Positions 42,048-43,453 of a stretch of 64,000 bases of DNA are shown in pieces; within the stretch, counting starts at the first letter, position 1, and the number at the start of each line of letters is the position of its first letter. The DNA lies in assembly GCF_044324875.1 (NCBI RefSeq), contig NZ_CP172185.1; one strand, written 5' to 3'. The DNA is from Escherichia coli (lineage in GTDB: Bacteria > Pseudomonadota > Gammaproteobacteria > Enterobacterales > Enterobacteriaceae). The notes under the pieces were generated by a model. It was given only the letters and a program-made list of their open reading frames with translations. It was not told where the DNA came from and ran no database searches. The position numbers were made by a program, and so were the translations under genes.

Positions 42048-43061
42048 TTAAAATAGCATTTGAGTCAAATAGCCCATCAAGATAGCCATACCTAATATAA
42101 CCGTCAGGAATGCAGCTATCATCGGCATTCTGAACATTGATTTAAGTAATATCACTTCCGTCAGGCTTGCGCCGGCACTGCCGATGATTAATGCCATTAA
42201 TGCTCCCAGACCCATTCCTTTTGTCATCAGAACAGATGCCAGAGGGATAACCGCCTCTGCCCGGATATACAGCGGAATACCGACAACGGCGCTCAATGGG
42301 ATGGCGAAGGGATTATCTGCCCCTGCATGAGCGGCAATCCACTCTGAGGGAATAAAGCCATAAATAAAAGAGCCTATTAATACCCCTAACAAAAGATATG
42401 GCAGTACATCTTTAAACTGTTGCAACGCATCTTTGGTGGCTAGTTTTATGGGATTAATACTTACCACAGCTTTGGTACTGCAACAGTTTACTACAGGTTT
42501 CTCAATGGCTTTAGCCGCTGGACTACAGCAACTCACTTTTATTGGCGTATATGTCGTCCCCGGCGAAGTTTTGGCTGGAGCACAACAATTTGCTGATGAG
42601 CTTTTACTGGCAATGATATGACGTTCAAATCCCAGGGAATCCAGGATAATACTGGCAAGTACGGAGACGCCGGCGGCGATAATCGCGTACAACAAGGTAA
42701 CTTTCCAGCCAAAAGTCACCCACATTAACCCGACGATAATGGGATTAAGTAATGGGGAAACAAATAAAAAAGTGAGGGTCGGACCGAACCCGGCTTTCGC
42801 TGACAACAATCCACGTAACATGGGGATTGTCGAGCAACTACAGAACGGGGTAACGGCTCCCAACAGAGCCGCCAGGAGATAGCCTCTCCCTTTTCTGGCC
42901 CCCATCATCTGCTGGATTTTATGGTCTGGCACCTTTTGTCTTATCAGGCTGACACCGGCACTAATCACTATAAACAGCAAAGAAAGCTCGACGGCGAGAA
43001 ACACAAACATCTCTGCGGCATCTTGCAGCATCGCAAGCCAACTACTCATACGTAACCTCAT
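42048..43061 (-). CDS. arsP: ArsP-like permease (DUF318/YraQ family) with TPFCSCS motif and Cys-rich loop
   Basis: 337-aa polytopic ORF; motif TPFCSCSTIP matches the TPFcsCxxxP signature reported for organoarsenical efflux permease ArsP; loop with three CC pairs (ANCCAP, VSCCSP, VNCCST); divergent from an ArsR-family gene. Confidence 0.65.
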   Translation of the reverse strand: MRLRMSSWLAMLQDAAEMFVFLAVELSLLFIVISAGVSLIRQKVPDHKIQQMMGARKGRGYLLAALLGAVTPFCSCSTIPMLRGLLSAKAGFGPTLTFLFVSPLLNPIIVGLMWVTFGWKVTLLYAIIAAGVSVLASIILDSLGFERHIIASKSSSANCCAPAKTSPGTTYTPIKVSCCSPAAKAIEKPVVNCCSTKAVVSINPIKLATKDALQQFKDVLPYLLLGVLIGSFIYGFIPSEWIAAHAGADNPFAIPLSAVVGIPLYIRAEAVIPLASVLMTKGMGLGALMALIIGSAGASLTEVILLKSMFRMPMIAAFLTVILGMAILMGYLTQMLF

Positions 43062-43156
43062 TGAATAAATCTATATTTCCAGAATAATCGAAATAAAATT
43101 CAGATCAAGATATTTCTGGTATTATCGAAATATCAACCAGACAAAGGGGGTGTCAT

Positions 43157-43453
43157 ATGCAGTTGGAAGAAGTTGCTAAAGCGCTGAAAGAGCTAGGTCA
43201 CCCGACCCGTTTGTTCATATTCAAACACCTGGTCAAAGCGGGGGAACAAGGTTTGCCGGTCGGTGAGTTGCAAAAGCAGCTTGGGATACCCGGCTCTACA
43301 CTCAGTCACCATATTTCAGCACTGGTATCGGTAGGGCTGGTCAAACAAAACCGTGAGAGTCGGACGCTGATGTGTGTTTCGCAATACGCAATGCTGGAAG
43401 CGATAATTGAATTCTTACGCGAGGAGTGCTGCGTAAATAGCAAAATTGCCTGA
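43157..43453 (+). CDS. ArsR/SmtB-family regulator (second copy, C-terminal Cys type)
   Basis: 98-aa ORF with a winged-helix HTH and C-terminal cysteines (LMCVS, REECCVN); divergently arranged with the ArsP-like permease. Confidence 0.75.
   Translation: MQLEEVAKALKELGHPTRLFIFKHLVKAGEQGLPVGELQKQLGIPGSTLSHHISALVSVGLVKQNRESRTLMCVSQYAMLEAIIEFLREECCVNSKIA

Follow-up and report, generated by a model that had tools for sequence, protein, structure and literature searches.

Why does an Escherichia coli chromosome carry, right beside its arsRBC operon, a second ArsR-type regulator and a further permease? The question is raised by a 64,000-nucleotide stretch (hereafter the window) of the E. coli assembly GCF_044324875.1 (contig NZ_CP172185.1), in which a divergent gene pair occupies 42048..43453. 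The pair consists of a permease gene of the ArsP_1 family on the minus strand and a gene for a 98-amino-acid (aa) ArsR/SmtB repressor, here called arsR2, on the plus strand. By comparing both proteins and the region between them with characterized systems, we conclude that the pair probably encodes a repressor responsive to trivalent methylarsenite (MAs(III)), which would control itself and an efflux permease for trivalent organoarsenicals, so that E. coli would have its own member of the SpArsR/ArsP system. This is not a new system: Shewanella and Campylobacter have already provided the type of regulator, the family of permease and the combination of the two. What is said here of the E. coli proteins is drawn from homology, while the experiments come from elsewhere, i.e. 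selectivity and promoter response in the case of SpArsR and transport in the case of CjArsP. The original prediction for this locus, made from the sequence alone, saw an extra metalloid module adjoining arsRBC, and this was borne out by an ArsP_1 permease, a regulator of the AfArsR/SpArsR type and relatives of both in other ars clusters. It had also left the substrate fully open, which is too cautious, since trivalent methylarsenite is indicated by the type of the regulator.

The family membership of arsR2 (43157..43453, plus strand) was established by profile searches, with matches to the helix-turn-helix domain HTH_20 (E=2.4e-14) and to the NCBIfam ArsR/SmtB model NF033788 (61.9 bits, cut-off 55). 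Among solved structures the best match is AfArsR of Acidithiobacillus ferrooxidans (6J05, E=4.7e-10), a regulator with a type-2 As(III) site, and residues 6-95 of ArsR2 align to its residues 10-99 without a gap. In both proteins a vicinal cysteine pair (CC pair) ends the C-terminal helix, Cys91-Cys92 of ArsR2 (EECC, codons at 43427..43432, plus strand) falling on Cys95-Cys96 of AfArsR. However, AfArsR binds As(III) through Cys95, Cys96 and Cys102, whereas ArsR2 stops short of the Cys102 position: its C-terminus, ...EECCVNSKIA, extends only six residues past the CC pair and holds no third cysteine. A C-terminal third cysteine is likewise missing in the regulators encoded by the related plasmid, Aeromonas and Shewanella putrefaciens loci described below. 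The one other cysteine of ArsR2 is Cys73 (LMCVS, codon at 43373..43375, plus strand), at which position AfArsR has a tyrosine. Both cysteine motifs had been placed at the C-terminus; this is correct for EECC, but the cysteine of LMCVS belongs to the beta-wing region. The type-1 site of R773/K-12-type regulators (Cys32-x-Cys34-x2-Cys37, ELCVCDLC) is absent from ArsR2, which has LPVGELQKQL in its place, whereas the canonical ArsR of the adjoining operon (45368..45721) carries ELCVCDLC. The locus does, as had been suggested, hold two metalloid sensors of different architecture.

The closest characterized counterpart is the SpArsR/arsP pair of S. putrefaciens 200 (Sput200_1227 / Sput200_1226), reportedly described by Chen, Nadar and Rosen in 2017. 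ArsR2 is 58% identical to SpArsR over 92 residues without gaps and lacks the 10-residue N-terminal extension of the latter, and the stretch IPGSTLSHHISAL, which includes the predicted recognition helix, is identical in the two. Cys73, Cys91 and Cys92 of ArsR2 correspond to SpArsR Cys83, Cys101 and Cys102, and neither protein has a cysteine past the CC pair. The SpArsR sequence was rebuilt from a codon-optimized gBlock in the supplement of PMC12124457, where the PDF has two drop-outs, and the reconstruction was confirmed by a 98%-identical database protein. In two papers (PMC11868830; PMC13236881), SpArsR is described as specific for MAs(III) through Cys101-Cys102 and as unresponsive to As(III), the latter being attributed to the missing third cysteine. 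Furthermore, when combined with the arsP promoter in an E. coli reporter strain, SpArsR gave 73% derepression at 1 µM monomethylarsenite (MMAs(III)), compared to 9% at 50 µM As(III) (PMC12124457). For ArsR2, as a regulator of the SpArsR type (clade IV), the alignments thus predict a two-coordinate methylarsenite site at Cys91-Cys92.

The resemblance extends to the DNA. The divergent promoter region of 95 bp between the two genes (43062..43156) contains two copies of ATTTC-N10-GAAAT, 37 bp apart and roughly inverted relative to each other, i.e. operator-like site 1 on the permease side (ATTTCCAGAATAATCGAAAT, 43075..43094) and operator-like site 2 on the arsR2 side (ATTTCTGGTATTATCGAAAT, 43112..43131). 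A pattern fitting both sites, ATTTCNNNWWTWWTNGAAAT, occurs twice in the 64-kb window, where 0 occurrences are expected; no operator of this type was found elsewhere in the window, arsRBC included, and the sequence of site 2 is unique in it. The published arsP promoter of S. putrefaciens 200 holds GATATTTCTGGTATTATCGAATTAC, which matches site 2 at 18 of 20 bases and shares with it the core ATTTCTGGTATTATCGAA. In the related plasmid and Aeromonas loci the site-2 20-mer is identical, even though the rest of the spacers has diverged. The Shewanella intergenic region differs in being longer, at 221 bp, and in having three candidate sites instead of two. At the center of each E. coli site a -10-like hexamer faces its own gene, TGGTATTAT in the case of arsR2, where it could form part of an extended -10 element within site 2, and TATTCT on the other strand in the case of the permease gene. 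A generic promoter scan gave no matches above shuffled controls, and the -10 elements at both operator sites are solely our own reading of the sequence. A second repressor published as MMAs(III)-responsive, that of Noviherbaspirillum denitrificans (Nd-ars construct, PMC12124457 supplement), likewise ends in ..RCCQG, and its promoter contains ATTTCCAGTATTTTGAAAT. From the sites compared, the ATTTC-N10-GAAAT operator type seems to be shared across this branch of ArsR proteins.

The permease gene was originally read as encoding 337 aa, which is the length of the longest open reading frame (ORF; to 43061), but the likely start is its fifth codon, an ATG at 43049, giving a product of 333 aa from 42048..43049 (minus strand). 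This start (M5) is preferred because it is preceded by a GAGG Shine-Dalgarno sequence, is the one used by RefSeq, in which the protein is annotated as a 333-aa 'permease', and is where all homologues begin. The match to Pfam ArsP_1 (PF03773; Transporter Classification family 2.A.119) has E=6.9e-53 and covers query residues 13-334 and model positions 3-293 of 294. The permease has eight cysteines in total, all of them either in the Cys-Ser-Cys (CSC) motif or in three CC pairs (ANCCAP, VSCCSP and VNCCST), and the TPFCSCST motif and the three pairs that the original prediction had listed are all present. The motif (42828..42851, minus strand) holds Cys70 and Cys72 in the 333-aa numbering, at a break between helices, and is the presumed substrate site. 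The CC pairs, C155-156, C174-175 and C189-190, are spread over a central hydrophilic loop of residues ~139-199 (42453..42635, minus strand).

A Shewanella permease (332 aa, ArsP_1) that is divergent from an SpArsR orthologue is 53% identical to the E. coli protein and also has three CC pairs in the loop; these figures come from a locus near-identical to that of S. putrefaciens 200. Another ArsP_1 permease of the same Shewanella island, which is linked with a small thioredoxin and has no loop cysteines, shows only 30% identity to the E. coli protein. The transport evidence drawn on here comes from CjArsP (B5LWZ8), reportedly identified by Chen et al. in 2015 as the methylarsenite/roxarsone(III) efflux permease of Campylobacter jejuni. 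It is 37% identical to the window permease over the full length with the CSC motifs aligned, i.e. the cysteine pair is retained in a proper alignment, and its gene likewise lies in or beside an ars operon. Unlike the window permease, CjArsP has 315 aa and a shorter loop with one CC pair, and is co-transcribed as arsP-arsR-arsC-acr3 instead of being divergent from a repressor of its own. In a rough neighbor-joining tree the E. coli, plasmid, Aeromonas and Citrobacter permeases cluster with Shewanella ArsP, CjArsP and Helicobacter proteins form a separate clade, and the thioredoxin-linked permeases are placed farther off.

Close relatives of the pair recur with other arsenic resistance genes. 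The plasmid version, known from Pullorum, from the 'ars2' cluster of the IncI1 plasmid R64 and from pESI-like Salmonella Infantis plasmids, has the same divergent layout, an identical operator site 2, a regulator with 94% identity and a permease with 81% identity over the full alignment (88% over gap-trimmed columns). It differs in having a longer cysteine-rich loop (permeases of 345-377 aa) and a regulator of 107 aa, and in its surroundings: in a pESI-like S. Infantis plasmid the permease gene is followed divergently by arsR, arsH, a sigma-factor gene, arsD and arsA, whereas the chromosomal pair has none of the last four and sits beside arsRBC. The arsH gene, encoding an MAs(III) oxidase, is intact in some other plasmids and cut by IS26 in others. 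On plasmid CP052793 (locus L006, 5217..5762) the gene between arsH and arsD is of the sigma-70 family and has been called sigL (PMC6449608). Relatives of the permease were found in 858 plasmid records, 464 of them from Escherichia and 198 from Salmonella, and food-animal sources are common among the plasmid matches listed. The plasmid relative has already been labelled arsP in the literature. In Aeromonas veronii the same divergent pair adjoins arsR-arsD-arsA-acr3-arsC, and since the ArsR of this operon has the three-cysteine AfArsR pattern, two sensor types stand side by side there too. The S. putrefaciens 200 pair neighbors arsC-arsR-permease-thioredoxin-gapdh-arsJ, in place of the arsRBC of E. 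coli, and ars genes are also present at the Citrobacter, Buttiauxella and Shewanella profunda loci. A glutathione-synthase-like gene (PF03917/PF03199), which may be a thiol-supply partner, recurs directly beside the permease gene or the ars cluster in Aeromonas, Shewanella, Endozoicomonas and Psychromonas (L005, 1672..3109; L009, 770..2197; also L038, L039 and L064).

A wider census was made of 80 species-level loci with orthologues 47-70% identical to the permease. An ArsR2-like gene lies at most 900 bp from the permease gene in 53 of these, in a divergent orientation in about 47, most of which also have operator-like sites. All 53 partner regulators have cysteines at the positions equivalent to Cys73, Cys91 and Cys92. 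Vibrio, Photobacterium and most Shewanella have the pair on its own, which is consistent with the model, as a sensor and a pump would be complete for a compound that needs no reduction step.

Put together, these comparisons allow a mechanism to be proposed. Without inducer, dimers of ArsR2 would occupy the two ATTTC-N10-GAAAT operators, which overlap the -10-like hexamers, and thereby keep both genes repressed. MAs(III), for which two thiol ligands are enough, would bind to Cys91-Cys92 at the end of the C-terminal dimerization helix, by homology to SpArsR, whereas inorganic As(III) would be a poor inducer because there is no third cysteine, as has been demonstrated for SpArsR. With the repressor off the DNA the permease would be made, and, if it works as CjArsP does, would export the trivalent organoarsenical by way of the membrane-embedded Cys70-x-Cys72. 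The CC-rich loop might, more speculatively, serve as an accessory thiol 'antenna' for cytoplasmic substrate capture; being absent in many orthologues, it would not belong to the core of the mechanism. The neighboring arsRBC operon would meanwhile deal with inorganic arsenic under its own type-1 ArsR.

Several observations weigh against an organoarsenical sensor and pump. Recognizable ars genes were found within 10 kb at only 8 of the 80 species-level loci, a lower bound, as the reference set held neither arsM nor arsI; with so few ars-linked loci, the case for arsenic depends chiefly on the type of the regulator and on what surrounds the pair in enterobacteria, Aeromonas and Shewanella. On the regulator side, the two-cysteine model leaves the invariant Cys73 unexplained, its equivalent not being part of the methylarsenite site described in PMC13236881. 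Moreover, 19 of the 53 partner regulators have an extra cysteine 3-7 residues past the CC pair, as does AfArsR, and inducers may accordingly differ between lineages. On the permease side, the protein belongs with the Shewanella clade and not with that of CjArsP (36-37% identity), and RefSeq names it only 'permease', whereas the Campylobacter protein is named ArsP. The CSC motif does not specify arsenic, being common to the SO_0444 copper/zinc exporters and the SaoE exporters. Finally, we found in the literature neither a transport or induction experiment on the E. coli chromosomal pair nor transport data for Shewanella ArsP itself.

How much, then, do the permease cysteines reveal? F69, C70 and C72 are invariant in an alignment of 66 permease sequences, but the idea that TPFCSCS is a signature of ArsP had to be abandoned. 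PFCSC is present in at least three-quarters of 93 full-length ArsP_1 family representatives (one per 50%-identity cluster), i.e. it is family-wide, besides the CSC motif being common to the families SO_0444 and SaoE. Four family members (P0282, P0299, P0303 and P0307) have a TPLCTFS-like sequence in place of CSC together with long His-rich N-terminal tails, an indication that one branch of this family handles metals. Of all parts of the permease, the loop shows the least conservation. Close orthologues range from 332 to 377 aa with the length differences confined to it, and its cysteine content varies even among them; many orthologues in Shewanella, Pseudoalteromonas and Colwellia have a loop of 47 residues with two cysteines and no CC pair. 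Across the family representatives the loop holds anything from 0 to 14 cysteines and from 0 to 7 CC pairs. An origin as a tandem DNA repeat was considered and rejected, Tandem Repeats Finder having found no such repeat. Judged from these alignments, the appendage is variable and apparently dispensable, with the tri-CC loop as one of its states.

The side of the membrane on which this loop lies depends on the fold. An AlphaFold2 model of the permease, built from the 66 sequences, has a mean predicted local distance difference test score (pLDDT) of 88 and a predicted template modeling score of 0.84, with residues ~150-199 predicted to be disordered (loop pLDDT 49-59). It places the CSC motif at the break between two short helices, 52-66 and 71-83; in the second half, helices 249-260 and 264-276 form a corresponding pair. 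In a published hydropathy model with 4+4 helices (PMC7176098), the loop and the termini would share one side of the membrane. If, on the other hand, the short helix pairs are re-entrant, the two halves would be inverted and the cysteine-rich loop cytoplasmic. Counts of Lys and Arg over the alignment do not separate the two, as the model with eight transmembrane helices and the hairpin model score equal once the loop is excluded. Some family members have a cysteine-rich N-terminal tail followed by one extra helix, which fits a cytoplasmic site for such appendages, and the cytoplasm is favored as the predicted location of the loop.

The re-entrant arrangement leads to the first of two further readings. 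Rather than the simple carrier of 4+4 helices described in the literature, the permease may be a minimal transporter of the elevator type, with the ion-transporter (IT) fold and a structural relationship to ArsB, in which case the two cysteine-bearing hairpin tips may form the substrate site and the variable CC loop may be a built-in cytoplasmic thiol chaperone resembling ArsD. The second concerns the majority of hosts (Vibrio, Shewanella and Photobacterium), whose stand-alone pairs may sense and expel a wider range of thiol-reactive organometals and organometalloids than methylarsenite, and in which the invariant Cys73 could tune specificity as a third, inter-subunit ligand. Taken jointly, we regard these two readings as unlikely.

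Could the pair instead serve inorganic arsenic, with the permease pumping out As(III) and Sb(III) as a reserve or in partnership with ArsA, and ArsR2 as a second arsenite sensor? The three CC pairs do bring to mind the As(III)-binding cysteine pairs of ArsD, and the invariant Cys73 could supply a third As(III) ligand, just as the additional cysteine near the CC pair in 19 of the 53 partner regulators matches the As(III)-responsive AfArsR. However, the regulators of E. coli, the plasmids, Aeromonas and S. putrefaciens have no such additional cysteine, and SpArsR, which has the same three cysteines as ArsR2, barely responds to 50 µM As(III). The plasmid cluster arsR-arsH-sigL-arsD-arsA lacks arsB and acr3 in the stretch seen, so that the permease there could partner ArsA, and a co-evolution of ArsP with ArsA was reported by Castillo and Saier in 2010, including an Aeromonas/E. 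coli/Yersinia cluster of ArsP proteins (PMC2963123). Against this, the plasmid cluster has IS26 at its border and could just be a truncated one, arsB is already next door on the chromosome, and inorganic arsenite is not extruded by CjArsP according to a review (PMC6205960). A role in inorganic arsenic resistance is therefore quite unlikely in our estimation.

Another candidate is an efflux module for soft metals (Cu, Zn, Cd, Hg or Ag) like SO_0444, in which case the link to ars would be a mere co-location of resistance genes. The best NCBIfam match of the permease is indeed the SO_0444 copper/zinc efflux model (NF033936), with which it shares the Pfam family and the CSC motif, as it does with SaoE (NF040736). 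Yet its scores of 109.2 and 86.5 bits are far under the respective cut-offs of 300 and 325, and since CjArsP, a proven organoarsenical pump, scores much alike on the same two models (86 and 106 bits), these matches are uninformative on substrate. No genes of the SAO locus adjoin the pair, the neighbors being slp, yhiS and arsRBC. Cysteine-rich loops are typical metal-binding appendages, some family members have the His-rich tails described above, and 72 of the 80 species-level loci have no ars gene nearby. The regulator and the operator, on the other hand, match the MAs(III)-selective SpArsR system and no known metal sensor, ArsR2 reaching only 20 bits on the CmtR model (cut-off 150), and the pair has repeatedly become linked to ars operons, of three different designs. 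What might still speak for metals is a second permease/ArsR pair, about 50% identical, which is found next to the sil operon on an IncF plasmid of E. coli. All in all, a soft-metal function appears very unlikely. The second pair (L008, 2709..4169) also occurs in Salinicola, Nitrincola, Pseudomonas saliphila, Shewanella profunda and Acinetobacter gyllenbergii (L065, L066, L078, L080 and L087). The C-terminus of its regulator is the same in all but one residue (..EECCAGVRIAH[D/E]PEPL), and it appears to be horizontally mobile.

Lastly, that ArsR2 is a thiol-redox or persulfide sensor like BigR and YgaV, with the permease exporting a sulfur compound, is highly improbable: YgaV and BigR are its second and third best solved-structure matches (E ~2e-7), the C-terminal cysteine of YgaV aligns with the CC pair and three invariant cysteines would permit disulfide or polysulfide switching, but ArsR2 scores just 38.5 bits on the NCBIfam BigR model (cut-off 155), the pair has no gene for a rhodanese, a persulfide dioxygenase or sulfur metabolism beside it in the window, and SpArsR, the orthologue of ArsR2, is MAs(III)-responsive in vivo.

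The organoarsenical sensor and pump thus being the preferred reading, the distribution of the pair within E. coli can be considered. Among 5426 complete E. coli genomes, 2225 (~41%) have it at this same site. Between the window and an E. coli lineage with ~4% DNA divergence, arsR2 has accumulated 11 synonymous and 0 non-synonymous changes (ratio of non-synonymous to synonymous substitution rates, dN/dS, 0.00), and the N-terminal half of the permease gene has a dN/dS of 0.02 in the same comparison. By this sequence measure, purifying selection acts on both genes in E. coli, and the pair is more than two chance ORFs. The pair had been suspected to be absent from K-12, and this proved right: in MG1655 the interval between arsC and yhiS is 628 bp long and does not contain it. 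The segment corresponding to window positions 41777..43383 is absent from K-12, which has ~105 unrelated bases instead. K-12 does retain a degenerate ~75 nucleotides of the arsR2 3' end (...CK and a stop codon in place of ...EECCVNSKIA and a stop codon), beside the repetitive extragenic palindromic (REP) element downstream of arsC. With a missing segment and a recognizable arsR2 remnant, K-12 can be taken to have lost the pair by deletion. To our knowledge, the only ArsP_1-family permease of K-12 is YraQ (b3151), which is 24% identical to the window permease and differs from it in having CTCC instead of CSC, no cysteine-rich loop and no adjacent ArsR.

The window is chromosomal, and its genes run in the order dctR, slp, a yhiS-like ORF, the permease/arsR2 pair, arsC-arsB-arsR, dinQ and gor. 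The canonical arsR-arsB-arsC operon (43587..45721, minus strand) is transcribed separately and has a type-1 ArsR of its own. Between the arsR2 stop codon and arsC (~43454..43586) lies a palindromic element resembling REP or a bacterial interspersed mosaic element, which matches many unrelated E. coli sites and over which a spurious ORF of 100 aa (43453..43755) runs. The yhiS-like ORF (40244..41467, minus strand) is intact, with 407 aa and no NCBIfam match, while yhiS in K-12 is a pseudogene split by IS5 and is annotated as frameshifted in two other E. coli genomes. An Rfam scan of 41400..43700 gave no RNA family match, and PADLOC returned only generic helix-turn-helix matches to Csa3-type models, i.e. 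no link to a defense system.

In the light of arsenic resistance, E. coli hence has a widespread but unstudied pair, which leaves the concept of the SpArsR/ArsP system unchanged. Of the complete E. coli genomes ~41%, and in addition the 858 plasmid records, would have a sensor and a pump that are probably specific for trivalent arsenicals of the methylated or aromatic kind. The pair has been overlooked, with annotations saying only 'permease' and 'ArsR family' and with the K-12 reference having lost it by deletion, so that what is known of the model organism does not include it. If our reading is true, an organoarsenical arm would be added to the arsenic resistance of E. coli, with a bearing on arsenical feed additives, on arsenic methylation by gut microbes and on the co-selection of resistance plasmids, and the species would offer a native promoter-repressor pair for MAs(III) biosensors.

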